Positions 13,086-47,500 of a DNA stretch of 64,000 nt are shown here, piece after piece; the stretch's first letter is position 1, and each line of letters begins with the position of its first letter. A program made the position numbers and the translations under genes. This DNA comes from Takakia lepidozioides (lineage: Eukaryota; Plantae; Bryophyta), in assembly GCA_030704615.1 (NCBI GenBank), contig CM060732.1, positions 31,000,001 to 31,064,000 on the forward strand. The letters are read 5' to 3'. The notes below the pieces were generated by a model. It did no database searches. It had not been told where the DNA came from and worked only from the letters and a program-made list of their open reading frames with translations.

Positions 13086-13560
13086 ATAGGGTCAGTGACA
13101 GATGGACGCGGGTTAACGTCAGAAAAGTGGCCGTCAAGTGAAAGAGAAGTTTGGAAGTCAAACTCGGAGAATGTGCCACGCGGACAGAGGGAAGTCGGAG
13201 GCATGTCTAAAAACGAACACGTGGCCACTAGGGCAAAGCACACCGCTGTGCATATATTGCAAAAGTGGGTATCATCATGCAAGAGGACAAATCGGGCCGT
13301 CAAAGTACCTACCCGGTACATCAGCCAAAACTATTTGTGGGCCCATTAATGCATTCAGGGCAGGGGTAACGGAACCCTTTCCGAGTACAGAAAAGATGGA
13401 CTTTTGCCACATGTGCTGTCCTACTGGACATTCCAGGTGGGAATGTCCACGGTGGGGGGTAGAATTAAGAAGTTTATTAAGCAGGCAACAGCCAATCAAG
13501 AGCAAGAATTTCATGCAGGTGGTTCTCTCCAAGAAATAAGAACAAGAAATTGGAAGAGTT

Positions 13561-18050: not shown

Positions 18051-18464
18051 GGGTTGCCAAAGGAGGTACAAGCTTGATTTTGAGTTCCAATGAGAAATTG
18101 AGCTTGTTGTGTGGCCTGTGCATTGCTAGTTGAGTTGGAGACAAACTTGAGTAGCTTAAGGTGAAGAAGATCAAGGGAATTTGCCTTGGTACCCCATAGA
18201 ATTCATGGATGCTTGAGGGGATTAAGAATAGAGCCCCAAGGAGCACAAACCCTAGCTTGGTAAGGCTAAACCTCAAGGAAATAGAGGGGGAAGTGGCTAA
18301 AGCCTAGGGGAAAATGGCTAAACCCTGGGGGGAAATGAACTACTCTATGAGGGGGAAATGGCTATTCCTAAGGGGAATACAAGGGGAATACGTATAGGCC
18401 CAGGGGAATACTCGGGGAGTATTATGGCATATTCTTGGGAATATTCTTAGGGAACTTTGGGAAC

Positions 18465-18830
18465 CTATTGGGAACTTGGGAACGCATTGGGAACATGGTG
18501 ATATAGGAAGAGTCTTTGGAGAACTGTTTGGGGTCCTTGGAGGACCATTGGGAGTCTTTGGAGGACTGTTTGGAGGAGCATTGGGAGTCTTTGGAGGACT
18601 ATTTGGAAGATCATTGGGAGTCCTTGGAGGACTGTTTGGGGTCCTTGGAGGACCATTTGGAGGACCATTGGGAGTCCTTGGAGGACTATTTGGAGGACCA
18701 TTGGGAGTCTTTGGAGGACTATTTGGAAGATCATTGGGAGTCCTTGGAGGACTGTTTGGGGTCCTTGGAGGACCATTTGGAGGACCATTTGGAGTTCTTA
18801 GGAGGACTATTTGGGGTCCTTGGAGGCCAA
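18465..18830 (+). repeat. GGAGGAC-based minisatellite with higher-order duplication
   Basis: ggaggactattt/ggaggaccattg/ggagtccttgga units; block 18601-18665 is repeated at 18721-18785. Confidence 0.9.
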
Positions 18831-19614
18831 TATTTGGCGAGCTTGAGGAGTCTTTGGCGACTTGTGTGAGGGACTATTGGGGTCCTCGAGGGCTAAGTTT
18901 TGGCAAGCTTGGGGTCTTGGTGTACTCTTTTGGAGTCCCATCGTGCAAGGATTGGGAGCCTTAGTGAGATTGTTTGAGAGACATATTCTTGAGGGCTCAT
19001 GGAGAGTTATTTGAGAGACCCTTGAAAGGTAGTCTTGTCTATTGTTCAAGTAAGAGAGTGTGGAGATAGGGTAGTGGGATGAGAGCATGCTGTGATAGGA
19101 ATTGCTTTAGTCTCTCTTCTTTGTAGTCTTCCACCCTCTCTGTAGGCCAAAACCTTTCCGTAGGTGGAGGCAAGAATCAGTCCGGGTTTGGGCTGGGGTG
19201 TCATTGTAGGAGCGACACTGTGGAGTGTTTTTGGTGTGGGGGAGTTGTTGTCTTGATTTTCTTGTGTTTGGGTCCTCTCCACACCTGCATGCTTGATTGT
19301 GCGCCATGTTAGCTTTGTATGGGCGCTTGTTTTCATAGGAGGTTGGTCCGGATTTGATCACCGGCCAATCCTAGAGCGTGCTGTCGGTGGTGAGGCTGGG
19401 GTGATGACCAGTCAGACCATCATTGTTTCTCTTATGGTGAGGCTGGGTTGATGACCAGCAGACCATATGAGTGCTTGCGGTGGATATAGGTGTAGGTTTA
19501 TATTACGAACCTAGTAGTCTAAGTCATAAGCTGCAACAGGTCCTCTACCCGGTTACCTTGTGGAAAGGGGGATTAGAGACAGGTTTACAACAGGTGTGGT
19601 TGTGAGTTTTCATC

Positions 19615-21000
19615 ACGGAGGTGCCACCAGTTGCTGAGGAGAGTGCCGGTACGAGCACCAGCGATACTAGTGGGTATACAAGACGAGGTGTGCGGTTTAG
19701 GCCACCTTCACCTTCAGTGTCTTCTGAGGAAGGTTCAGACTCGGAGTCAGGAGGATTCTCGCTGAGGATGCAAGTCATTTCCGTGCCATTGTTGTGGGAC
19801 ACGATGGAGGAGATGTATGGAGCTACCAAGGGGCCACGTAGGTACTCTGGAGTTGTGGGCACCATCGAGCTTGATGACTTCATACAAGAGTTTGACAGTT
19901 GGTGTGATTTGCAGCAGATGCGCAATCCACAACTGTTTACGCCTTTTATGGCGTGGAAGGGGCTATTTCAGCACCTTGAGGGGCCGCCCATGGATGACTA
20001 CCATGAGTTTAGGCGGGGACATGAGGTGGAAATTGAGGAATGGCGAGTGTATTGGTCACCTCACTATGTCTCCATCACTAGAGGCACAAGGGCAGTGGTG
20101 ACACCGGCAGCTACACCGGCAGCTTCTGCAAGCAGCAGTGGGACGTCAAGTGGAACAGGAGCTGGGAAGTCCACCCAAGCTCCTGCTGCAGCACCAACAC
20201 CCGTGTCAGCCTTTAACCCAGTTGTGGAGTTCTTCGAGGAGTTAAGGAGAAACTACCAGGGGATAAGGACGGAGAAATTGTGGAGTTTGCAAGAGTTCCA
20301 ACGAAAGCCTGCAGAGAGTTGAAGGGAGGCTTACACGCGCATGAGGCGCTTGATAAACGTAACCCAAGGGGTTACAGAAGCTCAGGAAGTCCAATTTTGG
20401 TATGGGATATTGGACAAAGAACTGAGGAGAAGGGTGCAGGATGCAACTCTCTTACAAGTGGCCCAACCCACCTTAGCAAACGTGTTTTTGCAGGCAGAGC
20501 GGATAGAGCTCAATATGGTGGAGGAGCGAGTGGTCATGGTGGGGTTTGGTAAGGAGACACAATGAAGTAGGGCTCTTAGCCAACAACAACCACTACCCCA
20601 ACGTGCTCAAGGCAACAAGGGGGCTCAGGCGAAGCCCAGGGAAGGGCTGAGAGGATTTCAATTGCAGAGGTCACTTCCTTCATTCTCAAGCCAACAACAG
20701 TCGGGTGTGACATGTTGGGATTGTGGAGGACCCCATGTTAAGAGAGATTGCCCGGAGAGAGGCAAAGGGCCGGCACAGGCACAGCCTACACAACTATAGT
20801 GTGGGCATTGTAGCAAGTATGGGCATGAAAAGGTCCATTGTTATGACTTGCATCCTGAGCTACGGCCAGGCCAGTTCCAAGGGAACAATGGTGGCCGAGG
20901 ATGAGGCAATGTAGTCCAGAGAGGTAGAGGAGGCAGAGGTCGTGGTGGAGGTCGTAACCAAAACCAAGGAGCACAGGGTCACGGTCAAGGTCATGACCAA
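19615..21000 (+). pseudogene. gag: gag, copy 1
   Basis: DDFIQEFDSWCD...FQHLEGPP; knuckles CWDCGGPHVKRDC and CGHCSKYGHEKVHC (first Cys preceded by a stop). Several in-frame stops. Homologous to 41727-40400 (-). Confidence 0.85.
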
Positions 21001-21003
21001 GGC

Positions 21004-22520
21004 ATGGTAGATAGGCTTGCCCAGCTAGAGCAACATCTTGCTACCATGGCCACTACTCATGTTACGCCAGCTCCAAGGCCTGAGGTTCAAGCCCCACCTG
21101 CACAACCTCCTATGCCTAGGGAAGACCAGATTGGTATAGGCTTCATGTGTGGAGCCGCACTTACACATGTGGACTCTGCAGCTGCTGTCACTCGAGCAGC
21201 AATGCGTGTTCCTGAGCCAAGAGGAGCGGATGTGGATTTTGATCCACAAAGAGGGGAAGCAAGTTGGCAGACAAGGCTTCCACAGTCTTTCACATTGGCT
21301 GAGACAGTGCCAACTATGCCATCGATGGCACCCGCTCGCCCAAGTGTATCAGAGGTAGAGCCACGAGTGCCACTGGGGAGAGTTGGTATGGCTCGGAAAA
21401 TGCCAGTGGGTGGTACTGCAAAGCAAGGTACAACCAGTACACTGTTGGGGGCGGCTACGGCAATTTTCCAAGCTCCATTGTTTTCTTCCACGACAATTGC
21501 AATGCCGGGGATGCGGCCAGCTGCGGTGTTTCGACTGGCAGCTGCACTCTGTGAGAGTGGTGATGCATCGGCACTATCTGCGGGGATATCGGATCAGGTG
21601 CAGTGCATGGATGCCCTGGATTCAAGGGTGAAGACAGCCACAGCTGCGCCATGGCAAGCGGCAGCTACAAGCTTGCAAGAGTTGCCACCTAGACTAGCCA
21701 TTGAGCGTAGTATGGTGACTCCTGGGGTAGTCCTAGTGGACAATCATGATGGTGTGTTTCAGTTGGGTGGCCCAGCCGGGAGGAGGTATAGGCCACTGCG
21801 GGTTTTGTTGGACTCGGGAGCACAGCCATTGATGTTGGGGAGAGCAGCAATTGCAGGCTTGGGCCTTACAGAGGCGGATTTGGAGCCTTGCCCTTTCCAA
21901 ATTCAAACATCTTTGGGTGGTTTAGAGAAGGCACGAGGGATTACATGCCATGAGCTCTTCATTCGATTGCAGCCAGATCATCCTATAGATGGCTCTGTCA
22001 TGAGAGCTAAAGTCATTGTTACGGACGCGATGTCTTATGATGTGCTTGTTGGCGGGGCTGTGTTATACCCGATGGGCTTTACTTTGGACTTTTGGGAGGA
22101 AACGACATCCTATAGGCCGGAATGGCAGTCAGGGGATGGTCGACGTGCACTGCTCCCAGTGCGGTTTATTAGGAATGTAACGGTGGATCATAGGAACATG
22201 ATGCCCACATTGGCTGCATTCTCAGGGGTGGTGGCTTGGGGTGGTGAGCTCTTGGAGGGCAATAGCCATGCAGATGATAGGCCACCACCTGATGAGGACA
22301 AACAATTGGCATACAAGGCTGATTTGCTTCCTCATGTGCCTGTTCATATTCCACTGTGGGGTACAGTTGGGAATTTGCATCGAATAGCAGGCGAGTGTGT
22401 GCACCAAGCATGGCAGGAGGCCTATCCATTGGTGAGTGAGGGGAGTTCAGTGACATCACCTGGACCTCCTCAGTTAGTTCTTTTGGACACAGTGCCCATT
22501 ACCTGGCAACCACCTGACTC
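21004..22520 (+). CDS. Linker and aspartic protease, copy 1
   Basis: VLLDSGAQP active-site motif at ~21802-21828; YDVLVG downstream; same frame as gag. Confidence 0.85.
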
Positions 22521-22524
22521 AGGG

Positions 22525-23110
22525 ATTTGTTTGCTAGACCTGTTTGGAGGCATGAGCATTGGGCTTGCAGGAGTGTTGCAAGCTAGGATTAAAGTACAAA
22601 AGTACTTGTATGTGTATTTCTATGCGCCACGTTGCCTTGCTCACACACCAGTACCCTGAGTTGCTGCCTGATGCAGCAGCGGTGGGATCACGCGCGCATC
22701 GACCTCGATTGTGGTGGACCAATCTTGCACCACCAGAGCTGCTCAAGATAGCATATCATTCCATTCAACGGCCACCCAATCTCACGGTTGAGGGCATTTT
22801 GGACCAAAGGAGGCAACCACAGAGGGTGCGACATGATGACCGTCCACCTCTAGCGGTGGTCAATCGAGTGGGGCAGCCACGTACAGCCTTGCCTATGCTC
22901 ATGAGCTTTCCCTCGTCTCATGCTTTTCGAGATATCCTGGGTTGATTTGGGACAGTGTGCTACAAACAATTGGTGGAGCCCAATGCGGATGAGCGCGAGC
23001 GGGCAATGGGGTTTGCCACGGGCACTACATCTGTGCTAGCTTTGTCAGAGGCATCACGACGCCAGGTGTTGGGTCAGGCAATGGATCTAAATTGCTTGAC
23101 ATGGATAATT
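22525..23110 (+). pseudogene. C5 cytosine DNA methyltransferase domain, catalytic core deleted
   Basis: Motif I LLDLFGGMSIG, VIII DAAAVGSRAHRPRLWWTN, IX ERERAMGF and X RRQVLGQAM are present. PC and ENV motifs are missing relative to copy 2. Confidence 0.85.
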
Positions 23111-24698
23111 GGCTTGTGCATGGCTGAGCAACGGAGATTGCAAGCATTGATGGCTACTTCTGCACTTCCATTGGATATTGCACCATCTATGCCAACCGGG
23201 ACGGTGGAGGCAGTGAGTGGGGGCGAGCACAGGATCATGGGGTGCAAACACCCATGGCAGATGTGGGATGAGATGCGGAAAGAGAGAGTCATTGGATCTC
23301 TCAAGCAGCAATATGAGGAGTGGGGAGAGCCATATACTGAGGATCAGTTAGAGGCCAAGGTGGCCAATGTTTTTGAAGAGGTTGAGAATGTTTCTTGCTC
23401 AGAGGATGTTCTCAAGGTGGCTATGGCGGAGCAAGTGGAGGCTACGCCACAGTCAGATTGGGCGGACAAGGCCCAAGAGGTTGCTATCTAGCAACCAAAG
23501 GATTCGTCTCCTACCTCCACGCCTGGTGTACCCAAGGTTGCAGTCACTAAGGACAATTGGGAACCAGATGTTGGACCTACAGTCACCGGAGGAGAGAGAC
23601 GGAGGATCCAGCGATTTCTAAGGGCTTATAGAAATTGCTTTGCCTTCGGTTTGATGGATTTGGGGAGTTTGAAGGGTCAGGAGATTCGTATTGATTTGGC
23701 AAGTGACACGCCAATCTTTCGAAGGCCATACCGGTATAGTGACATGGAGAGGTCATTGATCCAGTCACGGACTATGGAGTTGTTTGAAGCTGGATTGGTG
23801 GAGTTGTCAGGCGGGGAGTATGCCTCGGCAACGGTGATGCCAGCTAAGAAGGATATCTATGGCAATTGGACAGAAAGAAGGATGTGTGGGGACTATCGTC
23901 TTGTGAACCGTCAGACTAAGTCCGATAGATATGCCATGCCAACTCCAGAGGAGATCTTTGATGCCATTGGGCATGCAAAGGTGTTTAGCACATTGGACTT
24001 GCGATCCGGTTACCACCAATTGCCAATCAAAGAGGCTGACAAGCAAAAGACAACATTCTGGGGGATTGACCAACATGGGAAGGATTGCTTGTACCAATGG
24101 TGGTTCTTACCGTTTGGGCTGAAGAATGCTCCTGCAGAGTTTCAGAGGGTCATGGATAGGATTCTCACGGGGCTAGACTTCACCCGGTGCTACATTGATG
24201 AAATCATCGTCTTTAGTGCTACGGTTGAGGAGCATGAAAGACACCTTCAGGTGGTGTTTGAGCGCTTGAGAGCGCACGGGTTGAAATTGCACCCTGGGAA
24301 GTGCAAGTTCTTCCATAACCAGATTGAGTATCTGGGCCACATGATATACCCTGGAGGATTGGGTGTTGAAAAGACGAAGGTGGAGGCCATTGCACGCATT
24401 CCACGCCCCATAGATGTTAGTAGAGTTCGTGCTTTCATGGGGTTGGCGGTTTGTCAAGGGATTTAGCAGCATTGCAAAGGCTCTTACCAAGTTGACCAAG
24501 GTGGGTCAGGAGTGGCAGTGGGAGGAGGAACATGAGGAAGCCTTTGAGGAACTCAAGGCTCGATTGACTTCTGCACCTATTCTGAGGCGGCCTATTCGGG
24601 GGCGGCCTTTCCAGCTACATACGGATTGGAGTATGCTGGGAATTGGAGCAGTGCTCACACAGGTGGATAACGAGGGAAGAGAGTTCGTAGTGGCATAT

Positions 24699-27414
24699 CA
24701 CTAGAAGAGAAACCGGCTTTTTCCACTGTTTTTTCCATATTTTTTGTTGTGGAATCAGCCGCAGTCCACACCTGCCGTGGGTGTAAGGAACGACTAGTGC
24801 TTTCGGACACCTCGTGCATGGCCTGGCTCTCGGGTGGCCCTGTAGAAAAGTCCACGGGAGGCTTTTTCCATGGGTGGGCTTTTTTCACGGGCTGCATGGT
24901 GACATGGCCGATGGCATAGCTGACATGGCAGAGTGTGAAAAAAGGCCAGTGTGGCATATTTCACGGCGGATTTCACACCTTGAACAAGCCACTATATGAC
25001 ACGTGTCATATTTCACACCTTCGACAAGTCACTATGCAATACGTGTTCGTTCTTGTGTGGTGGTACACATTAATTAATTAATTAATTGCTTTCCAATATT
25101 AAGTTTGAATATTAATGGATTAATTTATTGTTATTATTATTATTATTATTATTATAGGAAAAATGGACAGTGGCCTGGATGAGAACATTATTAAATAACA
25201 AAATATTGAAATTATGTTTTTAGAAATTATATTTATTCGCTCAGCCATAGTGTTGAACACTCCCTTTGCATCCTCGATGCACCCACATTTTGCATACATG
25301 TCCACCAGGGTATTGTTCAAAATGACATTTGGTACAATTCCAGCTTTGATGATATCCCCATGCATCTCTTTGCCCTTCTCCAGGGCTGCCAGGGCTGCCA
25401 GGCCTGCAATGTATACAAACATGATGTGGCCGGGCTGGACCCCTTCCCCCATCAGTTGCTCATAGGTCTCCAAAGCCTCCATCCCATGTCCCTGCTGTGC
25501 ATACCCTGCAAGCATCGCACTCCACGACACCACATCTCGTTCAGCCATAGTGTTGAACACTCCCTTTGCATCCTCGATGCACCCACATTTTGCATACATG
25601 TCCACCAGGGTATTGTTCAAAATGACATTTGGTACAATTCCAGCTCTGAAGGTGTCACCATGGAGCTGCCAAGGCAGTGTTTCGAATGACATTAGGTACA
25701 ATTCCAGCTTTGATAATATCCCCATGCACCTCTTTGCCCTTCTCCAGGGCTGCCAGGCCTGCAATGCATACAAACATGATGTGGCCGGGCTGGACCCCTT
25801 CCCCCATCATTTGCTCATAGGTCTCCAAGGCCTCCATCCCACGTCCCTGCAAGCATCGCACTCCACGACACCACATCTCGTTCAGCCATAGTGTTGAACA
25901 CTCCCTTTGCATCCTCGATGCACCCACATTTTGCATACATGTCCACTAGGGTATTGTTCAGAATGACATTTGGTACAATTCCAGCTCTGAAGATGTCACC
26001 ACGGACCTCCTTCCCCTTTTCCAGAGCTGCCACGGCAGTGTTTAGAATGACATTAGGTACAATTCCAGCTTTGATGATATCCCCATGCACCTCTTTGCCC
26101 TTCTCAAGGGTTGCCAGGCTTGCACAAGCATTGCAATGCACACAAACATGATGTGAGAGGGCAAAACAGGTTGAAATAGGTCAAAGAAGAAGATGCCCTC
26201 ACCACATTGTCCTTGAGGTTGTGTCATGACTTGACCGACCATCAACCCAAAAGGACCTCTTGTGTGTGCTGCTTGTGTCTGTAGTCAGGTAATGTCGGAT
26301 TGGTCTGTGAGATCGAACCACCACGGTGTAGCTGAGTAGGCAGAGATTGAAACACAGCCTGCTGTGACCAAGCTAACTCTCCCAAGAATGGCAAGCTCGC
26401 AAGAATGTTGCGAGCTTCTCCTCGTCTCATCTCCTCCTCCTCTCCTCCTTCCTGCATCATTTGCTCGACGCCTCCATCCCACGCCCCTGCATATCCTGCG
26501 ATCATCGCGTTCCATCCCTCAGCTACATGGTGTGGCGCATGGAGACAAAAAAAAACGCCAAGTCCCTGCCCTCCTCTGTGTTCACAATTACCCTAATGGG
26601 CAACCTTATTAGCAACTTTTTGACTTTTTAACCTTTTGCACTTTGATTCATTCTAGGTCAGAGGCTAAAGTCCTGCTACCAGACTTGTCTAGAAAACCAA
26701 AACACCACGTAGACAAACATTTGATAATGGTAATAAAATATATTACCATTGGGCTGGTTTGAACACTTGTTAGTAAATTTAGGTTAGGATTTTTAGGTTA
26801 GGATTTTTTCGAAATATTCTGGTTTTTTCTTTGATGTGTGAGATGACAAAGTCCAAGCATGTCACATAAACAAGGAGTTCAACGTAAGGATGATGCAAGT
26901 GATTTGTGGCAAAAAATGTAAATCATGCCTATGCCTATTTGTCCTAGTTGTGTCATAGGTTGCAACGGAACGGGGCCACTTTTGAATGCGATCCCCATGC
27001 TCATTTCACCAAGGGCATTATAGACTTCATAATGGAGAGATTGAAAATGGGGTGTATTCTTCACTTGCTAGTAGCCCATCGTGCAGATTTCTAAACATGA
27101 ACATGAAGTTCATAATCATTTTCCAAGGGCATCATTCTCAAACTCCCCATACACCACAATCAGTGGAAATAATTGTATGTTCCTATTTCACACAGGTGTG
27201 TAACATGCCATGTAAACTAAGCCAACCCCTGCCACGCTCATGGCTGTTTTCACACCGTTCTTGCCTGGGGTGTGGACCACATGTGAGACACCCCACAGTT
27301 AGGGCATATTTAGACCCACACCTTGGCTCAGTGTATAGACCCGTGATATAAGCCGTGGAATGTGCCAGGTGTGAGATGGCAGAGCCGTGGAAAAAGCCGG
27401 TTTCTCTTCTAGTG
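24699..27414. mobile_element. Non-autonomous CACTA element carrying PPR fragments
   Basis: Perfect 28-bp TIR CACTAGAAGAGAAACCGGCTTTTTCCAC at both ends. 3-bp TSD TAT at 24696-24698 and 27415-27417. Removing the element restores RNaseH ...VVAYASRSNN. Confidence 0.97.
25230..26150 (-). pseudogene. PLS-class pentatricopeptide repeat gene fragment
   Basis: NTLVDMYAKCGCIEDAKGVFNTMAERDVVSWSAMLAGYAQQGHGMEAL repeated with a ~300-bp period; frameshifted. Confidence 0.92.
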
Positions 27415-29613
27415 TATGCCAGCCGCTCGAACAATGATGCCGAGGCGAAGTATAGCTCATATGAAGGGGAGTGACTAGCTACGGTATGGGCAGTGGCACA
27501 TTTTAGATGCTACCTCTATGGCAACCTCTTCACCCTTGTCACGGATCACCAACCATTGAAGTGGTTGATGGAGTTAGACAAGCTTACAGGGAAGCTTGCA
27601 CGATGGGCACTTATGCTTCAAGAGTACGACTTCCAGGTGGTGCATCGAGCCGGTATAGTCAATCGGGATGCAGATGGGTTGAGTCGTAATCCATGCATGA
27701 GCGAGCATGATGATACTGGAGCTTGGTGGCATGGTGAGACGGATGAGGAGATGGTGCCAGGATAGCGCGCATCTACCTTTTTTGTGCATCCTAGCAATGA
27801 GAGCTCAAGCTGGTCCATCCCATAGCATTGGTCAAGTAGATGGTGTGCATGATGATCCGGAGATCAGTGAGGAGCTTGGTGGTGCTAAGGATATGCATGA
27901 AAATGCAGCAGTGTTGGCCTACCTTCGTACAGGAGAGACAACAGCCAGTGTGACTGCTAAGGAGAGAGATCGGATCCTACAACGAGCCAAGAGGTTCAAG
28001 TGGGAAGGGACTCACCTACTCCGGGAATGGGAGGATAGACGAGTGAGGATTGTGCCTCATCCAACACAACGAGCGCGATTGGTACGCCATGCCCATGAGG
28101 AGTTGGGACATTTTGGGGTGCGGCGCACTCATAGTTTGCTGCAAGGGCAGTATTGGTGGCGGGGCATGCACACGGATGTGCAACAGTTAGTGACAAGGTG
28201 CATGGTGTGTGATAGAGTGCGGGCTTCTTTCAACGCCCCTACTCCACAATTGCATCATTTACCCATTATGGGTTTGGGCTATCGTTGGAGTCTTGACTTC
28301 GCAGGCCCATTGCCACTGACGATTCGCCATAACAAGTATGTGCTGGTGATGGTGGAACACTTCTCCAAATGGATTGAACTAGTGGCATTGCCTGACAAGG
28401 CAAGTGAGGGGGCTGCATATGCATTCTTAGTCGAGTGCTTAGCCATTTTGGTGCTCCAGCCGAGGTACTCACGGACCAGGGGAGAGAATTCTTGGGGGAG
28501 TTTCAGGCTTTGTGTGAGCAAGCCTTGATAGATCACCGCACTACTTCTCGGGATCATCCCGAGGCTGATGGCTTGGCGGAGAGAGTTGTTCAGACAGTCA
28601 AGAGAGGTTTGCGCAAGTACGGTTTGCGCAAGTACGGTTTGCAGAAGGGACACCTAGGAGATTGGGACCTTCAACTGCCTTGGCTAGCTATGGGCTATAG
28701 GTTCAGCAAACAAGCTTCACTTGCCTCCTTCTCACTTTACTTTCTTCTCTTCGGCCGAGAGCCGGATTTGCCTGCATCTATTCGCAGGGAGGCTGCAATA
28801 GTTCTCAATTTTGATGATCCGGATGTGTGGATACAAGCATGTGCCCAGCGGGCACAGTTGTTCAAGAGAGTCATGTCTATGGGTTTTGAGAACCTTGCTA
28901 TTGCCCAACACCGAGACACATTGAGGTACGCCACTATACGTGGAGGGGGATATCGGCCAAGTGTTCGGCGTTTCCACCTTGGGGACTATGTGTATCTGCA
29001 GCAGACAGCGCCTACGACCTTGGATGTCACAGCAGGACGTGTGATTCTAAGGGTCAGGGAGGTGTTGCCTTCAGGAGTGTTGATTCTGGAAGGTCGAGAC
29101 GGCATAGTATGGAAGGACCATGTGCGCAATTGTGCGCCATGTCACTTTCCACATGTAGATGGGAGGATAGATCCCAACCTTGCAGTGGTACCTGTAGGAT
29201 TGCGTTGCATGCCATGTGGATATGCTGGTGGCGCCACAACCATGTTGGTGTGTGACAAATGCTCAAGGGGGTGGCACATGGGATGCTTGACACAGCCACT
29301 TGAGGAGGTCCCTATTGGAGAATGGTTGTGTCCACGATGCCTTGGACAGAGGTAGTGGGCATGACAATGGTGAGGCGGACAAGTTATCCAAGGTCTAGCT
29401 AGTGAGGCTTCAATGCCATGGATACTCAACTAAATATCATGGATTGCATGAAGGCGACTAACGATGGGGCTACGTTTGCACCCGGCCTCTTGATCTATCG
29501 ACTTCAGGTGTTGGGACTTGTGCAATTGAAGACCAAGCGATGATCTTATTGAGATGGATACTTGTCAGCTATTCGGTGTTAGAGGGACCTAAGCACCAGC
29601 TAAGGGGGGCAAT

Positions 29614-30151
29614 TGTGGCATAGCTTTCTAAGATTATGTGCTTAGAATGTATGGTGGACAACGATGTATGTTGTGGCACGATGCTTAGATGCACGACAGC
29701 TGTCATGGTTTTAGTCATGGTTAACTAGAATTACCTACTTCTAGTTAACTAGGATATTTTGGATATTCATATTTGTGTTTTGTGTGTTGGGACTTCATTT
29801 GGTCTCACATGGCAAGTGAGGTGTCAAACCTCACTTGGGACATGGGGATGGGTTTTCCCCTTGTGAGTGTTGAGGAGGGCTCATCTTCTTGTAGTTGAGC
29901 CTCCATGAGCCTCTCCCACCTCCATAGCTCTAGGTATTGAGTGGGAGTGTGGTGAGGGCTTTGTAGGGTGGATTCCTTTAGCAAAGGTGCCATTGGCTTG
30001 ACTTAGTTTATGTGATTGAGTGGATTCATGAGTGGAGTGTTTCCATTGTGTTCACTTTCATTATCATCGTGGCATAGCTTTCTAGGATTGTGTGCTAGAA
30101 TGTATGGTGGACAGCGATGTATGTTGTGGCACGATGCTTAGGTGCACGACA
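29614..30151 (+). repeat. 3' LTR region of copy 1: block B (29614-29698), segment A (29701-30066), block B again (30069-30151)
   Basis: Starts TGTGGCA just after the PPT AAGGGGGGC; direct repeats are visible in the sequence. Confidence 0.8.
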
Positions 30152-33425: not shown

Positions 33426-34724
33426 ATTTGTGAGAGGTGGATATGTCATGGCGTCGAAGCGTTTGCGATACACTAGATCCGTATGTGATATAGTGAATAT
33501 GGGAACTCCTCCGCACAATTTGCATGCAGGCGGTGGTAGAGCATATCGACTCCAGGGGGGTTCACTATATATATTTTTTTCATATCACGTGCGTACAAAT
33601 GTATATTTATACTAGGCTATATTCTTCAATTTTTGCATTTTTTTTCTACCCTATATTTAGGTAATGATTGTAAAACCCTTTGCTTTCTAACACCATATTT
33701 TTTTTTATAAATTTTTTTGCAACAATTAATTAGACCATATTTTAAATTGTCCTTTTAAATGATTGCAAATTCTCAAAGCATGTACACAAACAAGTACATT
33801 CCATATAACATAAGTCAAATGCCGGACCCAAGAAAAAGTTTAATTTTCATTAGTCACGAACTCATTTAAAGCCGCAACATCACTTGGATCTAAAGAGTAC
33901 AAGTTTTGAGATGGTTCAAATGTCATAGTCATTGTTGAGATTATAGTATCAACATCAATCCACTACGTATCACTGGAATTATATTTCAACTTTAGGTGAC
34001 TTCTACTTGATCTCATCCTCATGGATTACAGCTGGATGTAATATGAGAAACTTCACAAAGATGCATACATTGTAGATAAAACCCTTTATTATATTAATTT
34101 TTTAAGTTAAACTCTGGATTTTTCGTGACATTTGTTTTTAAAAAACTGGGTGAAATGATATTGCCCTACCAAATTTTCTAAGTAATTTTTTTCATAAATT
34201 TACCTCAAAAAAAAAAAATTACACCCTATATTTGTTCTCACGTGGTTTTGAAAATACGGGGAGTGACTCTCCTAAGATCGACTCTCTCCGGTTGCCAAGA
34301 AAACCGTTTTTGGGGCTTGAGACTGTCCCAAGTCTGACCTTTCTTGAAATGAGTTCATGTTTTCACCTAAACAAGAACCAACCATCTATTTTCCCTGTCG
34401 TGCGCATACGTATCGCTACACAACTACATCGCTATCCAAACTACACCACACATATATGGACAATAAAGTAGTCTGCCACAATCGCCCCCCTAGCTGGTGG
34501 ATAGGTCCCTCTAACTCCAGATAGCTACAAGATGTAATAGCCACAGCCGTACTAAGTCCTCTATCACTGTCCCTATTGTACTCAAACTCTATAGACCAAG
34601 AGGCCGGGTACAAGAGTAGCCCCATCGTTAGTTGCCGTCTTGCAATCTGTGAACTTGAGCCAGGATCTCGTGTGTTCAAGGTCTCATAGTAGCTTGGCCT
34701 TGCATTTCTTGTTAGCCTTCCATG

Positions 34725-37700
34725 TAACCAATCCCCATCAGGAACCATCTCAAGAGGTGGAGTCAAGCATCTCATATGCCAACCTCTAGAGCATCGATCA
34801 CACACCAGCATGGTGGCTGCCCCTCTAGCAGACCCACACAACATGCACCTCAAACTTGCAGATACCACTGCCAGGTTTGGGTCAATCCTGCCATCGACAT
34901 TTGGAAGGTGACATGGCGCACAATTATGCACATGGTCCTTCCAAGTTATGCCATCCCGACCCTCCAAGATCAAGATGCGTGAGGGCAAGACCTCTCGAAC
35001 CCTCAAAATAACACGTCCAAGGTCGTAGGAGCAGTCTGCTGCAGATAAACATAGTCACCAGGGTTGAATCTCCGAACCCCAGGACAATAGCCCCCACCAC
35101 GTATGGTAGCATACCTCAATGTATCACGATGTTGTGCAATGGCAAGGTTCTCGAAAGCCATGGGCATGACTTTCTTGAACAACTCTGTACGCTGATCACA
35201 TGCACGTGCCCACACGTCCGGATCGTCAAGGTTAAGAACTGTAGCAGCTTCTCTACAAATGGATGTAGGCAAATCCGGCTCTCGGCCAAAGAGAAGAAAG
35301 TATGGTGAGAAAGAGGCAAGTGATGCTTGCTTACTGAACCTGTAGCCCATGGCTAACCAGGGTAACTGAAGGTCCCAATCTCCTAGGTGTCCCTTCTGCA
35401 AGCCATACTTGCGCAAACCCCTCTTTACTGTCTGAACAACCCTCTCTGCCAAGCCATCGGCCTCAGGATGATCCTGAGAAGTGGTGCGGTGGTCTACCAA
35501 GGCCTGGTCACACAAAGCCTGAAACTCCCCCAAGAACTCTCTCCCTTGGTCCGTGAGTACCTCAGCTGGAGCACCGAATCGGCTAAGTACACAATCCAAG
35601 AATGCATCACTAGCCTTATCAGGCAATGGAACCAACTCGATCCACTTGGAGAAGTGCTCCACCATCACCAACACGTACTTGTTGTGGCACATGGTCAGTG
35701 GCAACGGCCCTGCGAAGTCAAGACTCCACTTGTAGCCCAATCCCATGATCGAAAGAGGGTGCAATTGTGGAGTAGGGGCGTTGAATGAAGCACGCACCTT
35801 GTCACACACCATGCACCTAGCCACAAATTGTTGCACCTCTGTATGCATACCACGCCACCAATATTGCCCCTGCAGTAGACTATGAGTGCGTCGCACCCCA
35901 AAATGCCCCAACTCCTCATGGGCATGCCGCACTAACCGTGCCCGTTGTCTTGGGTGAGGCACAATCCTCACTCGACCATCCTCCCACACTCGGAGCAGGT
36001 GTGTCCCCTCCCACTTGAACCTCTTGGCTCGTTGTAGGATCCGATCCCTCTCTTTGGCAGTCACAGTGGTTGCCGTGTCTCCAGTGCGGAGGTAGTCCAA
36101 CACAGCTGAATCCTCATGTATATCTTTGGCGCCACCTTGCTCATTGCTGGCCTCAGGGTCCTCAGACACTTGATCTACAGTCATCCCTGTTGCAGGTCCA
36201 ACCTGGCCTTCCGCTGCCAAGATACACAGAAATGCAGATGCACGCCATCTGGGCACCATCTCCTCGTCCGTCTCACCATGCCACCGAGCTCCAGTGTCAT
36301 CCTGCTGGCTCGTGCATGGATTGCGACTCAACCCATCTGCATCCCGATTGACCAAACCCGGTCGATGCACAACCAGAAAGTCGTACTCTTGAAGGATGAG
36401 TGCCCACCATGCAAGCTTCCCCGTAAGCTTGTCTAACTCCATCAACCACTTGAGTGGTTGGTGATCCGTGACAAGGGTGAAGAGATTGTCGTATAGATAG
36501 CACCTAAAGTGTGCCACGGCCCACTCTGCAGCTAAGCATTCTCCCTCATATGAGCTATACTTAGACTCTGCAGCGTTGTTCGAGCGGCTAGCATAAGCCA
36601 CTACGAACTCTCTTCCCTCATCATCCACCTGTGTGAGCACCGCTCCAAGCCCCAACATGCTCCAATCTGTATGCAGCTGAAAAGGACGCCCCCTGATAGG
36701 TCGTCTCAAGATGGGCGCCGAGGTCAACCTCGCCTTGAGCTCTTGAAAAGCTTGTTCTTGCTCATCTTCCCACTGCCACTCTTGGACCACCTTGGTCAGT
36801 TTGGTTAGAGCCTTTGCAATGGCACTAAATCCCTTAACAAACCATCTATAATTGTTTGCTAACCCCATGAAAGCTCGAACTCGACTCACATCCGTGGGGC
36901 GTGGAATCTGTGCAATGGACTCTACCTTAGTCTGCTGTACCCCCAATCCTCCAGGATATATCATGTGACCCAGATACTCAATTTGGTTGTGGAAAAACTT
37001 GCACTTCCCCGGATGTAACTTCAATCCGTGCGCCCTCAAGCGCTCAAATACCACCTGAAGGTGTCTCTCATGCTCCTCCACCGTAGCACTAATGATGATG
37101 TCATCTATGTAGCACCGAGCAAACTCCACCCCTGCTAGAATCCTGTCCATGACTCTCTGAAAACTCTGCAGGAGCGTTCTTAAGCCCAAATGGTAAGAAT
37201 ATAGGCAATCCTTCCCGTGCTCATTGATCCCCCAGAATGCCGTCTTCTGCTTATCCGCCTCCTTGATCGGCAATTGGTGATATCTGGATCGTAAATCCAA
37301 AGTGCTAAAGACCTTGGCATGCCCAATGGCATCAAAGATCTCCTCTGGTGTTGGCATGGCATACCTATCGGACTTGGTCTGACGATTTACAGGCCGGTAA
37401 TCACCGCACATATGTCTCTCCGTCCAATTGCCATAGACATCCTTCTTGGCTGGCATCACTGTGGCTGAAACATACTCTCCCCCAGATAGCTCCACCAAAC
37501 CAGCCTCCCAAAGGTCCTGAGTTCTCATCTGAATCAAGGACCTCTTCATGTCATTGTATCTATAGGGTCTCCGAAAGATTGGCGTGTCAGTAGCCAATTC
37601 AATGCGAATCTCTTGACCCTTCAGTGCTCCTAAGTCCTTCAAACTGAAGGCAAAGCAATTCCTGTAAGCCCTCAAGAACCGCCGTATACGTCGTCTCTCT

Positions 37701-37801
37701 CCTCCGGTGACTATAGGTCCAATATCAGGCTCCCAGTTATCCTCCGTAACTGCAACCTTGAGTCCAGCAGGCTTAGAGGTAGAAGACGTGTCCCGTGGTT
37801 G
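34725..37801 (-). pseudogene. pol: pol (RT-RNaseH-integrase-PHD), copy 2
   Basis: 890-aa ORF 35003-37675 with YIDD, TDWS, HHCC and DDE motifs. Frameshifted tail ...CMLCGSARGAATMLVCDRCSRGWHMRC (PHD with last Cys pair lost). Confidence 0.95.
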
Positions 37802-38099
37802 CTATGCTGCAACCTCTTGAGCAGTGACCACTGCCTCCTCTGTCAGTGACAATGTCTCATCCTGCCCCATCATCCCATCCTTGAGGACCTCCTCAACCCG
37901 AGAAAAATCCCCAACCTGATCCATCATCGCCGCCTTGGCTGCCAACTCCTTCTGAACCTCGAGCACCTCCCACGTGTGCCATGGATGCGGCCTGCACCTC
38001 GTGGTTGTCACCTATTCGCCCCCACTCGCTGCCTGTACCGTCTCGGTAGGTAGGGAGACCATAAAGGGAAGTGTACTCTGTACTCTGCGCTGCTCAGCC

Positions 38100-39071
38100 A
38101 TAGCCAAGCTGATAATCCAGGTCAAGCAATTGAGATCCATTGCTTGCCCCAACACCTGACGACATGATGCCTCAGAAAGAGATGGCACCGCCGTGGTACC
38201 AGTGGTAAAACCCATCGCCCACTTGCGCTCGTCAACATTGGGCTCCACTAATTGCTGCAACTGGCTATCCCACAAGAGGCCAGGTCCACCATCCCGGAAA
38301 GCATGAGATCCTGGAAAGCTGAGTAGTGTAGGCAATGCGGCTCGTGGGTGACCCACCCTATTGACCACTGCCAAAGGTGCTCGGTCATTGTGTCTCACAC
38401 GCTGAGACTGTCTCCCTATGTCCAAAATGCTATCCACCGTCAGGTGTGGTGGCCGCTGCACCCCATCAAATGCACGCTTGAGCAGTGCAGGTGGCATCAA
38501 GTTGGTCCACCATAGTCGTGGGCGATGAGCCCGTGACCCCACTGCAGCTGCGTCCAACAACACTGCTAATCCAAGCCAAGACCGCACTTGATGCACACTG
38601 GCCATCACCTTGGCCCGAGAATCACCCATCAATGGCACATTCTCCAAAATATATGCCGGAGAGTCTGTCTGCTGAAGCTGTAAATAACGTAGGACCCTCA
38701 ACATCTCCCAAAACAGGCGTGACCTTGAGTCTTGTAACCCATTGTCATGCCCGGCTGATGAATGCCCTTCGCAGGGCCAACCTGCAACTACCAAATGAAT
38801 AGGGTCAACCCGCTCCAAATCATGCGCCCCAAGCAAAGAGATGTCTGCTGGCAATGCTGGTTGGTATCCACGAACTGCAGACACTGGCAACAAATCAGGG
38901 TACTGCTGCACCAACGGAGCAACATGGCGCAGTGAGACGCGTCGTGCGCAGTGAGACGTGTCGTGCAGTCTCATCCCTCTCCACATACAGGTAACGTCGA
39001 ACTTGTACACCTGCCTGCAACACTGCAGCCAATCCAGTGCTGATCCCGCCAAACAAGTCCAGAAGGCATAT
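38100..39071 (-). pseudogene. C5 cytosine DNA methyltransferase domain (DNMT3-like), all motifs present, one frameshift
   Basis: I LLDLFGGISTG; II RYLYVERD; IV LVVAGWPC (Cys codon 38771-38773); VI YILENVP; VIII LLDAAAVGSRAHRPRLWWTN; IX ERKWAMGF; X RQVLGQAM. Confidence 0.92.
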
Positions 39072-39185
39072 GCCTTCATCCGGGCACTGCCACACAAGAG
39101 GTGTGGCGTCCAATGGCGACAACTGAGATGGTTCTGGTGCAATCACCGCACTCTCCTCCTCTCCTGACGGTACGAAGGCCTCTAC

Positions 39186-40307
39186 CTAGGCTTGTTGCAC
39201 CCGTCTATCAGCAGCTTGCTGCAAATGCTTGCTCGTACCCCACAATGGAGTGTGAGCAACCATGGCAGGCAACTCCGCCGTACCATGCATGTCATCCTGC
39301 TCTGTTGGAGGTGGCACATCCTCTGCATGGGCATTGCCCTCCAGCAACTCTCCAGGCCAACTAACTGCAGCTGTGAAGGCTACTAGTGTTGGCATCTTGC
39401 CCCGCTGGGCAGCAGCAACACCCCCAATGACTGTCATAAGGAGTTGTACACGACGACCATCCCCTGACTGCCATCCAAGCCTGTAGGATGCTGAATCCTC
39501 CCAAAAATCCAGGGTGAAGCCCATGGGATATAACACTGTCCCACCAACGATGTCATCGTAAGAGACCACATCTGTCACAATGGCCTTGGCTCGCATCACT
39601 GAGCCATCTATAGGATGATCCGGCTGTAGTCTAATGGCCAACTCATGCCGTGTCATGCCCCGAGCCTGCTCTGATCCTCCCAGAGATGTCTGTATCTGGA
39701 AAGAACAAGGCTCCATGTCCGCCTCCATGAGGCCCAAACCTGCAATAGCAGCTCTGCCCAACATCAGTGGCTGAGCTCCCGAGTCCAACAAGACCCACAG
39801 TGGCCGGTACCTCTTGCCTGCCGGTCCACTCAAAGAAAAAATGTCATCCTGGTTGTCTAACAAGACAACTCCAGGTGTCACCATGGCGCGCTCAAAGGCT
39901 GGCATAGCTGGCAGCTCCGTCAACCTGGCAACTGCAGCTTGCCATGGCGCAGCCGTGGCAGTCTTGACCCTCAAATCCGAGGATCCCTCTGCCACTACAC
40001 CCTCCACTAACTCCGCAGAAGATGAAGTGACCTCCCCACTCTCGGAGAGTGTTGCTGCTAGTCTGAACACTGCAGCTGGTCTTACCCCCGGCGTCGCAAT
40101 CATGGTTGCCGAGAATAGTGGGGCTTGACACACAGAGGTGGCTGCCCCCAACAATACACTGGCTGCACTAGTCTTGGCAGCAGGTGTCAGTGCTGCACGT
40201 GTAGCTCTCCCTAATGACACAATAACGGCCTTTGTATCTGTCGGACGAGAACTAGGTGTCATGGATGTCGTCGACACTGTCTCCCCCAAGATGAATGATT
40301 GAGGCAA
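39186..40307 (-). CDS. Linker and aspartic protease, copy 2
   Basis: VLLDSGAQP motif; colinear with 21004-22520. Confidence 0.85.
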   Translation of the reverse strand: MPQSFILGETVSTTSMTPSSRPTDTKAVIVSLGRATRAALTPAAKTSAASVLLGAATSVCQAPLFSATMIATPGVRPAAVFRLAATLSESGEVTSSSAELVEGVVAEGSSDLRVKTATAAPWQAAVARLTELPAMPAFERAMVTPGVVLLDNQDDIFSLSGPAGKRYRPLWVLLDSGAQPLMLGRAAIAGLGLMEADMEPCSFQIQTSLGGSEQARGMTRHELAIRLQPDHPIDGSVMRAKAIVTDVVSYDDIVGGTVLYPMGFTLDFWEDSASYRLGWQSGDGRRVQLLMTVIGGVAAAQRGKMPTLVAFTAAVSWPGELLEGNAHAEDVPPPTEQDDMHGTAELPAMVAHTPLWGTSKHLQQAADRRVQQA

Positions 40308-40399: not shown

Positions 40400-41727
40400 C
40401 TGCAGCAGACTCCACCTGCACTAGTGGTAGTGCTGCCCCCACACATAAATCCCATGCCTCCCATGTCTCATCTGTCCTGGGCATCTCCATGCCCATACTT
40501 GCTACAATGCCCACACTGCAACTGTGCATGCAGTGCTTGTGCCGGCCTTTTGCCACTCTCTGGGTAATCTTTCTTGACATGGGGTCCTCCACATGTCCAA
40601 CATATCATCCCTGGTTGTTGTTGGCTTGCAAAAGATGCTACTGGCCTCTGCATCTGAGGTCCCATGTAAGCTCCATGGAATTTGGGTTGAGAAACCTTGC
40701 CCCCCTGACCACGCTATTGGGTAGTCCCTTGTGCCTGTTGGCTGGCAATTGCGCCTCGTGCAGGCATGTCCTTGTTAAATCCAATGGTAGCAACTCGCTC
40801 CTCCACCATGTTGAGCTCAATCCGCTCAGCCAGCAGAAACACATATGCTAATGTGGGTTGGGCTGCTTCTAACAGGGTTGCATCCCGCACCCTTCTCCTG
40901 AGCTCCTTGTCCAAAATTCCATACCAGAACTAGATTGCCTGAGCTTCAGTAACCCCTTGGGTCACATTTATCAAGCGCCTCATACGAGTGTAGGCCTCTC
41001 ACAAGCTCTCACTGGATTTGTGCTGGAAGTCTTGCAAACTTCGCAGCTTCTCTGTCCGTACACCTTGCTAGTTCCTCCGCAACTCCTGGAAGAACTCCAC
41101 CACTGGGTTGAATCTAGGCACATGTGTTGTTGTCGTAGCAGGAGGAGTAGTAGCACCTTTTGAACTCATACCACCTGCAGAAGTACCGGCACTACTTGTT
41201 CCACTACTAGTGCTGGCAGTGGGAGATATTGGTGCTGATGCAGCTACTGGTCGCGTCGTGCCTCGAGTAATGGAGACGTAGTTAGGTGACCAATACATCC
41301 TCCACTCCTCAATCTCTGCTTCATGTCCTCGCCTGAACTCGTGGTAATCATCGATAGGTGGGCCTTCCAAATGCTGGAACAGTCCCTTCCACGCCATGAA
41401 TGGGGTGAACAGCTGTGGATTGCGCATCTGCTGCAAATCACACTAGCTGTCGAACTCCTGGATAAAGTCATCCGGCTCGATTGTGCCCATAGCTCCAGAG
41501 TACCTACGAGGCCCCTTGGTAGCTCCATACATCTCCTCCATGTCGTCCCACAACAATGGCGAATGAAACTGCACACCTGTTGATGAAGCCTCCGAGTCTG
41601 TGTCTGACTCTGCACTAGTTAAGGATGGAGGTGAAGGTGGTCTGAAACGAACACCTCGTCTGGTGAACCCACTCTCACTGCTACTGCCTGTAGCTGTACT
41701 CCCCTCAAAACCCTTGGGTAACTCCGT
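40400..41727 (-). pseudogene. gag: gag, copy 2
   Basis: TRRGVRFRPPSP, DDFIQEFDS, CWTCGGPH, CGHCSKYGH; in-frame stops. Confidence 0.85.
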
Positions 41728-44551: not shown

Positions 44552-47500
44552 CTAGTACACATCCACATCAACCAACTCCTCATCACTGGACTCTGAATCT
44601 CCATCGCAACTGTCCTCCGTGGGACATGGATGTGCTTCCTCAGATCGCATGTCTCTGTAAAGTGAAGCAACCTCTTCAGGTGTCACTTGGATGGTCTGGC
44701 CCACCCTGTCACTAGCAACGTTGGTCTCTTCAATGTGATTGGGGGCTAAGAGGCCTGATACACTTGCAATATCATCGTTGCAAATGCTCACATCAGAAAC
44801 AGCCCTGCGTGACCTGGGGTTTTTTTCCAGCACCACGTTCCATCTCGGTTCATTCACACACTCAGAGAAAAAAACTTGCTCGACCTGTGATGGGAGCACA
44901 AAAGGCTGTTCAAGTGGAGGCAACAAGTGGGAGAAATTCACCAATGTGAAGCCAGACTCATCCTGCTTCATTGACACAAGCTGAGAGCCCACACGTCGTG
45001 CACGTACCCATGAACACAATAGCACCGTGGTGTTTGTGGAGCCATAATCCAATTCTAAAATCTCCTTTATGACACCCACATACCGTACCTGCTCACGGTC
45101 AATGCAAGTACTGTCATGCTGGAAAACAGTAGAGACCCCCGAGTCATATGTCACAAAGGGGCTGTTGAGTCCATCTGAAGTAACCCTGAAGTGGTTTCCA
45201 TAAGCCGACATGCTCTTGTATGATGTTGCGATTACTGATGGGGGTTTGGACATGTCCAACAATTCCTTGCAGGCTGAATCAGTAGCATGGTTGGCAACAC
45301 TTGGCACATGCTGGCGGACTGCTTTTACCAGCCATTCTGCAAAGTGAGGGAGAGCACGGATCTTGTTATGGTTAGTAGCATTTTCAGTCTCCAACCTGCA
45401 TTTCTCCACCTCATAGGACCTGCCAACACACGCACAACCACAGAAATTTATCTAGTGCAACCCCTGCAGCCGATGGAAGAACTACTGCACACACACCTAT
45501 ACAAAGCATACCCATGCATAGCAAGTACCAGAACGTTTGCCACTTACCCCAACATAATGCTCAAACTGGGATGGTTGTGAATGACATAGTCGTGGACAAG
45601 CTGCAACAATTCGAGGGTCAACCTCCGTGGTCGACCAACTCCTTCCAATACCCAGCCCGACACTGATTCCTCCTCTCCTGCATCCCACACTCTCCGCCTA
45701 GTAGCATCAACAGAAGACAAGTACTCTATACAAAATCCCAATGCCTCGTCAAACACGTAGCCCTCTGCCATACTGCCCTCAGGCTTTGCCAAGTTTCGCA
45801 CATACCCTTTAAAATCCTTCATTGCTCTCTCCACCGGGTACATCCACCGAGAAGCTACAGGTCCACACAAATCCACCTCATCCACCAAGTGGATAAGTAA
45901 ATGTGTCATAACATCAAAAAATGAGGGTGGGAACTCTTTCTCCAGAAGACAAAGAGTCACTGCCACCTCCTTCTTCAATTCCTCATGCTCGGTGGGATCA
46001 ATGAATTTTGCACAAAGCTTGCGAAACACACGGGACACTCTTAGTATGGCATTGCGAACCCCAGGCGCCATCAACCCACGTAGAGCAAGTGGGAGGATCT
46101 GTTGCATTAGCACGTGATAATCATGTGACTTCAATTGGCTCAACTTTTGTTTGACCACATGTTTTTTGAAAGCAGAGGCATAGCCAGTGGGTACTTTCAG
46201 ATTCGTGATAATCTCCAGGAACACCCGCCGCTCTGGTTTTGTGAGCACATATGGCGCATCAGGCATTACCAATGTATCCACTCTGGTGGGATGGCGTCGT
46301 AACCAAAGAGGCTTTTGAATGCCCTGCAATTCCATATCGCGGCGAACTTGCATCGTGTCCTTCTCGCCGAAAATAGTCTTGATTATGTTCTCCGTCACGT
46401 TGTTCTCGCAATGCATGGTATCAAAAGTGTGGCGGATGATAAGATGCTGCACCATGTGGTCTAACAAATTAGGCACATTGCAATGCAGTCATGAATGATG
46501 TTTACAGCACAGGTTCAGTAAACAAACAATCATGCACAATGAAAAACCAATGCACTGTTTTGTTCCCAAAACACATGTGTGGTAATCGCACCTCCCAGTA
46601 AGGCAAGTCAAACAGAATGGACAATCGTTTTACGCCATGGAGCTTGGAGGGATCGTTCTGTGCGCCTACAGTCCCACCATCATCAATCCATTGTTTGTAG
46701 TGTCGTGCACGCTCCTTGATTTCGGTGGCTGTCACTGTATGTGGAGCAGGTGTCATGTCTCGCGCCCCATTAAAAAGTCTGGATCTTCTATAGGCATGAT
46801 TGTGGGGAAGATAGCGTCGATGCCCCTGGAATATCAATTTCTTACAAGCTGGGGAATATCTGGAATTGACTTGAGGTCCACATGCTGGACAAGCAGAGTA
46901 CCCTTGGTGAACCTGACCTGATAACAAGCCATAGGCGGGGAAGTCATGTATGGACCACATGAGGATTGCACGCATGTTAAAAACCCGCTCTCCTTCAATG
47001 GCTGCCACATCCACGGCTGCAACTCCCACCCACAATGTCGTTAGCTCCTCCACTAGTGGTTGCAGGTAAACATCCACATTTTCACTTGTCACAGATTCCT
47101 TTCCAGGAATGAGGAGTGTTAACATGACAAAAAATTTCTTCGTTACCAACCATGGAGGTAGATTATAATTGAGCACCATGATGGGCCGGGTGGACCAAGA
47201 AGTGGATTTGGTGCCATAAGGATTGACCCCATCCAGTGCCAATCCAAGACGCAGATTTCTTGGATCTGAAGCAAAATCCGGCCATGTGTTGTCAATATGG
47301 CACCAAGCCTTACTGTCTGCAGCATGCCGGACCATGCCATCTGCACTTCTATGATTGTTGTGCCACTTCATGAGCTCTGCCAGCGTCTTAACTCAAAACA
47401 TCCGTTTCAATCTAGGTATGAGAGGAAAGTATCGCAACACCTTCTTGGGCACCTTCCCACGGCCGTCCATGTATCGACGACTATGGCACTTGGGGCAATT

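Follow-up and report, generated by a model that had tools for sequence, protein, structure and literature searches.

Two related Ty3/Gypsy elements in the window (the whole 64,000-nt stretch of Takakia lepidozioides DNA analyzed here) carry a C5-methyltransferase (DNMT) domain between the protease (PR) and the reverse transcriptase (RT), a placement claimed by the first-pass annotation and borne out by domain and motif mapping. Comparisons across the family support the view that this domain is DNMT3-like and is a maintained trait, not a one-off capture. On balance, we favor an account in which the copies belong to an old Ty3/Gypsy lineage of green plants: the first open reading frame (ORF1) encodes Gag-PR-DNMT, its stop codon is probably read through, and the enzyme would be packaged and likely methylates the element's cDNA. 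The two elements face each other and are 70-79% alike in DNA; both show the Gypsy order PR-RT-RNase H (RH)-integrase (IN), with a DDE integrase, the DNMT between PR and RT, and a PHD finger last, and the best solved-structure match of RT/RH is Ty3. Both are dead elements.

In copy B (coding region 41541-34725, minus strand, as for all of its features), Gag with a CCHC zinc knuckle (40489-41541, with stops) and the aspartic protease (39480-39896) precede the frame-broken DNMT3-like domain (38078-39077), which is followed by RT (37681-36932), RNase H (36781-36362), integrase (36001-35012) and, 3' of the integrase and in another frame, the PHD finger (34725-34847; PF00628, E = 8.6e-9). The methyltransferase domain matches PF00145 (E = 2.9e-10; 40.5 bits, cut-off 22) and presents motifs I (39056-39033), II (38993-38982), IV (GWPC, 38782-38771), VI (ENV, 38644-38636), VIII (38527-38501), IX (38245-38225) and X (38152-38135) in canonical, unpermuted order. 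The canonical motif set annotated for this copy is therefore right in order and content but not in being one intact frame: a break near 38950-38980, between motifs II and IV, leaves I-II in a different frame from IV-X. The Gln that follows the catalytic Cys, kept in 45 of 47 alignment rows, is replaced, a premature stop lies 21 codons past the domain, and there are stops in Gag and in the linker.

Copy A (coding region 19804-29340, plus strand) has Gag, a CCHC knuckle and protease at 19804-22116, a methyltransferase remnant at 22513-23143, and RT, an interrupted RNase H, integrase and PHD finger at 23612-29340. The remnant retains motifs I, II, VIII, IX and X; about 100 codons, including motifs IV and VI, are gone, and its pieces have no methylase match in a Pfam scan, so that the PF00145 search proposed earlier succeeds for copy B and fails for copy A. 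An ENV at 23384 in copy A falls beyond the limits of the domain and is regarded as a chance match. The RNase H is split by a CACTA-type insertion (24699-27414) with terminal inverted repeats and a 3-bp duplication, TAT; the insertion is non-autonomous and carries repeated PPR gene fragments at 25120-26180 (minus strand).

If both window copies are broken, what kind of enzyme did their ancestors carry? One of the parallels to DNMT3 pointed out in the annotation holds: the DAAAVG/AHRPRLWWTN stretch of copy B genuinely aligns with DNMT3A DAKEV-SAAHRARYFWGN, the closest solved structures to a single domain sequence are DNMT3A/B (E = 4.5e-6), and a family profile matches DNMT3A/B among PDB sequences at E = 5.5e-18, compared with 6e-8 for DRM and 7e-6 for M.HhaI; identity to DNMT3A is ~21%. 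The predicted model of an intact relative (L001) has a pLDDT of 94, and all 31 rows listed by Foldseek for it are DNMT3A/B/C (best E = 3.4e-20, TM 0.72/0.83). Profile and predicted fold together support a DNMT3-like domain, with DRM and bacterial enzymes more distant; the label rests on these two and on the published tree of the Klebsormidium enzyme (PMC5890265), because the trees built here do not contain host DNMT3, DRM or CMT. Family domains have the canonical order I, IV, VI, VIII, IX, X with the catalytic Cys and ENV, whereas the window copies are broken; across the 47 alignment rows, the Cys is present in 44, the Glu in 45, the Asn in all 47, and the two Arg residues of motif VIII in 44 and 43. 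Unlike in DRM, in which the motifs are circularly permuted, the order is unpermuted here, as in animal DNMT3A/3B and moss DNMT3 (PMC6453930); unlike these DNMT3 proteins, the element domain lacks PWWP and ADD and is embedded in a Gag polyprotein.

The window copies have many relatives. A profile search finds 582 clusters (at 50% identity) that match the domain at E <= 1e-30, and relatives 60-73% identical are labelled Marchantia polymorpha, Calypogeia fissa, Riccia sorocarpa and Sphagnum; database searches returned no vascular plant among the named domain-bearing matches. Together with the PPR gene fragments, this set of relatives makes a non-seed land plant the likely host. The loci considered below are the first 44 of 80 fetched, the remainder being weak matches. 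Is the domain in these elements a passive passenger, or a module kept for a non-catalytic binding role? In favor of such a reading, mutation has disabled it in both window copies, and stops, breaks or an incomplete domain mark 24 of the first 30 loci; yet the catalytic Cys, ENV and RxR are retained, a domain found in so many clusters is hard to see as dead weight, and in young decayed copies (DNMT dN/dS 0.52-0.57; all domains 0.24-0.88) RT and integrase decay like DNMT. Between subfamilies, the DNMT domain is under purifying selection: dN/dS, computed after removal of poorly matching columns (which lowers dN somewhat) and with many pairs saturated, is 0.14 for copy A vs. copy B (191 codons, Nei-Gojobori), 0.10-0.12 among L019, L022 and L028, against 0.03-0.07 for RT, and 0.10-0.20 between subfamilies, in keeping with the published criterion of Ka/Ks < 0.2. 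We regard a passenger or binding-only domain as very improbable. The neutral dN/dS that had been named in advance as counting against a maintained domain is not what the comparison between subfamilies gives; low dN/dS, matching subgroups in the RT and DNMT trees within the DNMT-first type (two short rows are omitted from the RT tree), and the abundance of relatives support a maintained family trait, as the annotation had it, over a one-off capture.

Methyltransferase-carrying Gypsy elements have precedents in algae. De Mendoza et al. (2018; PMC5890265) described KnitGypsy-Dnmt3 of Klebsormidium nitens, which shares with the window elements the Gypsy domains, an unpermuted Dnmt3-type domain, purifying selection, and DIRS-like repeats (their Figure 4c legend). 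The K. nitens protein P0405 (KFL_009030040), which we infer from its label and domains to be this element, has the order PR-DNMT-RT-RH-IN and is 45% identical to the window family over 260 aa of DNMT (E = 4e-58) and 47% in Pol. By its sequence, the window element belongs to the same kind as KnitGypsy-Dnmt3: the shared order, DNMT identity and repeat layout extend a known algal lineage into land plants. The two differ in that the algal DNMT lies in the Pol ORF, whereas the land plant domain closes ORF1 before a conserved stop; in addition, the available text of the 2018 account contains no readthrough, self-priming, target duplication, PHD finger or integration model. The DNMT-before-RT layout is found in proteins labelled Klebsormidium and in Closterium proteins (P0288, P0294, P0362 and P0437); by virtue of the latter, it occurs in the algae that are sister to land plants. 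In a second layout, the DNMT lies between RNase H and integrase: RT-RH-DNMT-IN-PHD in one frame characterizes L031-L040, L044, P0150-P0157 and P0206 and makes up 34 of 150 representatives, with Scenedesmus, Chromochloris and Tetrabaena as named labels. This homologous domain in another slot of chlorophyte elements extends the 2018 report beyond Klebsormidium. A quick RT-RH tree (the integrase tree is likewise a quick one) places the family and Klebsormidium all on one side of the branch (100) to 7 unrelated Gypsy rows and groups P0405 with the algal RH-DNMT-IN type; the inner order is poorly resolved.

How is Pol made if the DNMT ends an ORF? The annotation placed the domain inside the polyprotein, which is correct insofar as it is embedded with Gag-PR, but it does not share one open frame with RT: in both copies, at the equivalent place between ORF1 and ORF2 and in frame with DNMT and RT, stands the conserved in-frame stop TAG CAA CCA (23489-23497, plus strand, in copy A; 37796-37804, minus strand, in copy B). 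The context is that of type I readthrough, whose motif is UAG-CAR-YYA (PMC3542737). A stop followed by CAR-YY in the RT frame is present in 23 of the 25 loci that have the DNMT end and the RT start on one contig, the exceptions being L023 and L043; the full CAR YYA is present in 6 of 25 (CAA CCA, CAG TTA and CAA TCA, which differ in the amino acid encoded and keep YYA), and 5 of 6 bases in 17 of 25. Those 17 (of 23 stop-bearing loci) form one subfamily with CAA CCC ATG, in which the sixth base is off and a restart codon is available; since they include duplicates (L017/L018, L020/L024), the stop contexts number about four independent ones, and the chance per linker is 2-5%, falling to 0.5-1.7% when the full hexamer is required. 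Annotated Marchantia ORF1 proteins 1278-1281 aa long make up five of the 15 cluster members listed; one Marchantia ORF1 protein, taken as a full sequence, ends shortly past the DNMT. The stop is not universal: P0286, P0380, P0383, P0392, P0405 and P0437 run from DNMT into RT, and P0380 falls inside the clade of the window's copy. The conserved stop and its context point to readthrough and to an enzyme made at Gag level; ORF1 is Gag-PR-DNMT, and Pol is probably made by readthrough of its stop. Tobamoviruses similarly use UAG with CAR YYA in frame with the polymerase (PMC3542737); here, by contrast, the stop follows the Gag-PR-DNMT of a retrotransposon, and one subfamily has CAA CCC ATG.

Removal of the stop by splicing, or re-initiation beyond it, would also give Pol. 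The ATG that directly follows CAA CCC in the 17 loci would suit re-initiation, Marchantia gene models that fuse DNMT to RT across the stop region (P0125) would suit splicing, and Ogre elements are known to splice between protease and RT. But the gene models are predictions, the window copies have no ATG at this place (in copy B, the first in-frame Met comes ~85 codons on, within the stretch that matches RT), ORF2 continues in the frame of ORF1, and conservation at the nucleotide level extends over the six bases that follow the stop, all of which makes these routes unlikely and leaves readthrough as the reading we prefer. A transcriptome-derived RT-RH-IN-PHD protein of this family, P0365, has 83 open codons before the RT match, compared with the 35-43 that the conserved stop leaves.

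The label LTR retrotransposon fits the Gypsy coding order, but not the ends: a search of the window found no ordinary LTR pair for either copy, and the elements have split direct repeats. The probable 5' end of copy A is repeat A1 (7662-8015, plus strand), which begins with TG, has the 4-bp flank AAAA, is 97.7% identical to A2, and lies 11 kb upstream of the remainder of copy A, to which it probably belongs. At the 3' end (29602-30151, plus strand), a polypurine tract is followed by B1 (29612-29698), GC, A2 (29701-30066), B2 (to 30151) and then AAAA. L018 is complete, with A1-coding-polypurine tract-B1-GC-A2-B2; the layout A-coding-B-A-B is present there, in copy A if A1 belongs to it, and in L006, cut by the contig end. 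Short forms ending after B1 comprise L008, L015 and copy B, in which a polypurine tract and a single terminal repeat B ending in CACGACA (34396-34491, minus strand) give way to unrelated DNA; such forms can also come from B1-B2 recombination. All four two-ended elements have 4-bp target duplications (AAAA, AAGG, CACA, ATGT), which sit outside the start of A (TG) and the end of B (CA), thereby marking these as the inserted ends; the window duplication is AAAA in A-rich flanks, and ATGT flanks L008 (6065-11719), a short form in which repeat A is nearly all missing. The family has TG...CA ends, a 4-bp duplication, a primer site and a polypurine tract, as do canonical LTR elements. The junction between B and A, found in five places, reads CAYGACA-nn-TGTCAYG, a near-palindrome with CA-nn-TG at its center. 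At the 5' end of copy B, a search found no A repeat or matching 4-bp flank; a candidate there is an 11-nt self-complementary pair near 42580/42865 (2/200 shuffles). A contig from run X8, ~95% alike to the coding part of copy B, ends (window 34476) in a repeat B that resembles the one in copy A and differs from that of copy B itself; subfamilies may thus swap repeats.

The stretch directly after A1 is the probable primer site of copy A (8016-8029, plus strand), complementary to a site inside A1 ~170 nt (160-172 nt) upstream; 12 nt pair exactly. The pairing grows to 16 nt in L017/L018/L029, and its sequence differs between the two subfamilies; the predicted fold has z scores of -3.4 and -3.3 (0/200 shuffles), and in L020 and L029 a TATA-like box precedes the site by ~30 nt. 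L006, L007 and L013 have no exact 10-nt match. The sequence at 8014 also resembles a CACTA end, a reading set aside as the main one because the match to A2 continues as far as 8015 and ~18 bases pair with the interior of the repeat. Self-priming is reported for Tf1/Sushi, Tcn1 and TAR (PMC6317226), which have in common with the window element a primer site after the 5' repeat that is complementary to the repeat interior; unlike them, the window element has no chromodomain but has a PHD finger and split repeats, and the available part of that source names no methylase or PHD domain for Phygy, Selgy and Tcn1. Judged by this signature, the element probably primes itself.

If priming starts after A, how does an inserted copy come to end in B? 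LTR-type priming logic yields cDNA with a repeat at both ends, and priming after A and before B would give a linear cDNA that carries B+A at each end. The ends of this cDNA would be joined into a circle, which the integrase would reopen where B meets A, at the CA-nn-TG junction; the products would have processed-type ends (integrase substrates normally bear two-base overhangs), and B would be shifted from the left end to the right, the permuted layout observed. Given the split repeats and target duplications, which suggest a DDE integrase with the circle junction as its normal substrate, we lean slightly toward integration from an end-joined circle reopened at CA-nn-TG. Use of a circle junction has so far been observed mainly as a side activity of retroviral integrases; HIV integrase cuts a palindromic 2-LTR circle junction in vitro (PMC1905944; also PMC1180852). 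The long form would be the productive one, because it alone keeps a 3' A for the first strand transfer.

The same repeats could arise by a DIRS/PAT-like route, in which the internal B-A junction templates the circle, or by processing of internal ends on linear cDNA, in either case with no end-joined two-repeat circle. The layout matches descriptions of DIRS-type elements and of KnitGypsy-Dnmt3 (PMC5890265), and a short A-coding-B form with a target duplication, such as L008, needs no circle. But a polypurine tract right before B and a primer site right after A are LTR-type priming signals, the ORFs scanned yielded rve and H2C2 domains and no tyrosine recombinase family, and B stands behind A in the long form, an arrangement that linear cDNA could presumably yield only if its ends were joined. 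These routes seem to us somewhat unlikely, and the end-joined circle remains our choice.

What could the methyltransferase do in this cycle? A leaky stop would yield RT-RNase H-integrase-PHD as its extension, and particles would take up the enzyme in amounts similar to those of Gag; the conserved stop predicts both the level of the enzyme and its site of action. Inside the particle, the protease would release the DNMT beside the new cDNA, and the DNMT would methylate the element's own cDNA before insertion, so that a new copy would arrive pre-marked and be silenced or go unrecognized. Self-methylation by the family enzyme is plausible; we see the chances as evenly balanced for the specific sequence of protease release in the particle, methylation of the element's own cDNA and arrival of a pre-marked copy. 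CpG depletion as a mark of self-methylation does not set the elements (observed/expected 0.42-0.55) apart from neighboring transposons (0.49 for the CACTA transposase, 0.21 for another retroelement remnant). KnitGypsy-Dnmt3 gave no methylation in yeast, in an assay that its authors call inconclusive; SymbioDIRS-Dnmt3, which has A-coding-B-A-B repeats, performs de novo CG methylation in yeast (PMC5890265).

The enzyme might act mainly in trans on chromosomal DNA (family copies, the neighborhood of insertions, or rival elements) and not on particle cDNA. A Gag-level product would be plentiful, the DNMT is encoded on ORF1 apart from integrase and PHD, and in moss the host enzyme DNMT3b methylates heterochromatin de novo in the CG and CHH contexts (PMC6453930). 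Packaging, however, is what a fusion to Gag and protease suggests, and the 34 representatives in which the algal domain lies within Pol, between RNase H and integrase, tie it to the cDNA complex; action mainly in trans is in our judgment unlikely, and the particle remains the favored site. The strongest combination, in which self-priming, Gag-level DNMT loading, methylation of own cDNA and an obligatory circle reopened at the palindromic site would all apply in green algae, mosses and liverworts alike and would amount to a replication cycle without a counterpart among textbook LTR elements, is tentative and, taken whole, rather improbable.

Elements of this general sort come in several kinds. 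SymbioDIRS-Dnmt3 uses a tyrosine recombinase (PMC5890265), whereas the window elements have a DDE integrase and a PHD finger. EpiLTRs (bioRxiv 10.64898/2026.05.21.726589) are likewise retrotransposons with cytosine methyltransferases, but their DNMTs are sister to DNMT4 and accompanied by DAM and chromodomains, in contrast to the DDE integrase and PHD finger here. DNMT-carrying Gypsy elements were previously described from one alga; a 2026 preprint mentions "streptophytes (Gypsy-DNMT3)" in the portion available, and a 2019 opinion article (PMC6338049) holds, in its available text, that land plants such as tracheophytes lack transposon-encoded methylases. A full-text literature search, of sources other than subscription papers, Repbase and the main supplement of PMC5890265, returned no description of the family in bryophytes, of the stop, or of the priming; five further sources (PMC12344493, PMC6453930, PMC9477723, 10.1101/2021.11.30.470311 and 10.1101/2022.06.16.496473) provide context on moss DNMT3 and the Chlamydomonas Gypsy PHD, and the bryophyte family is absent from their available text. 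Novelty beyond algae, as suggested by the annotation, lies in the presence in a land plant; a new kind of element it is not, KnitGypsy-Dnmt3 having been published in 2018. The conserved stop, the split repeats with target duplications and the self-priming signature go beyond what the annotation had noted. The split layout may explain why the lineage would escape scans for paired LTRs. Because Marchantia, a tractable model, has annotated full-length ORF1 proteins, the role of a retrotransposon methyltransferase can be tested in a land plant.

Read depth and the rest of the window add minor observations. Contig depth over the DNMT is broadly similar to that over Gag and RT (run X1; 70,946 contigs, 30/30 bins covered), depth being distinct from copy number; in one run, presumed to be RNA, bins inside the DNMT are uncovered, which carries no weight for or against expression. 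Two pieces scanned in 60360-63920 have no Pfam match at 0.01; by eye, we take ORF pieces at 60360-62200 to resemble a SWIM/MULE-type transposase and one at 63354-63920 to resemble a LINE endonuclease. The ~11 kb that separate A1 from the remainder of copy A (8030-19140) are probably nested insertions: a deleted retroelement remnant with CCHC knuckles and an integrase-like tail lies between 10-bp tandem arrays at 8749-9019 and 12911-13074, no Pfam family matches the ORFs at 15062-17747, and a 33-bp-type array occupies 18480-18940. Just past the 5' region of copy B, pieces of a CACTA/EnSpm transposase (Transposase_21, DUF4218, DUF4216) are present at 44552-47392 (minus strand).
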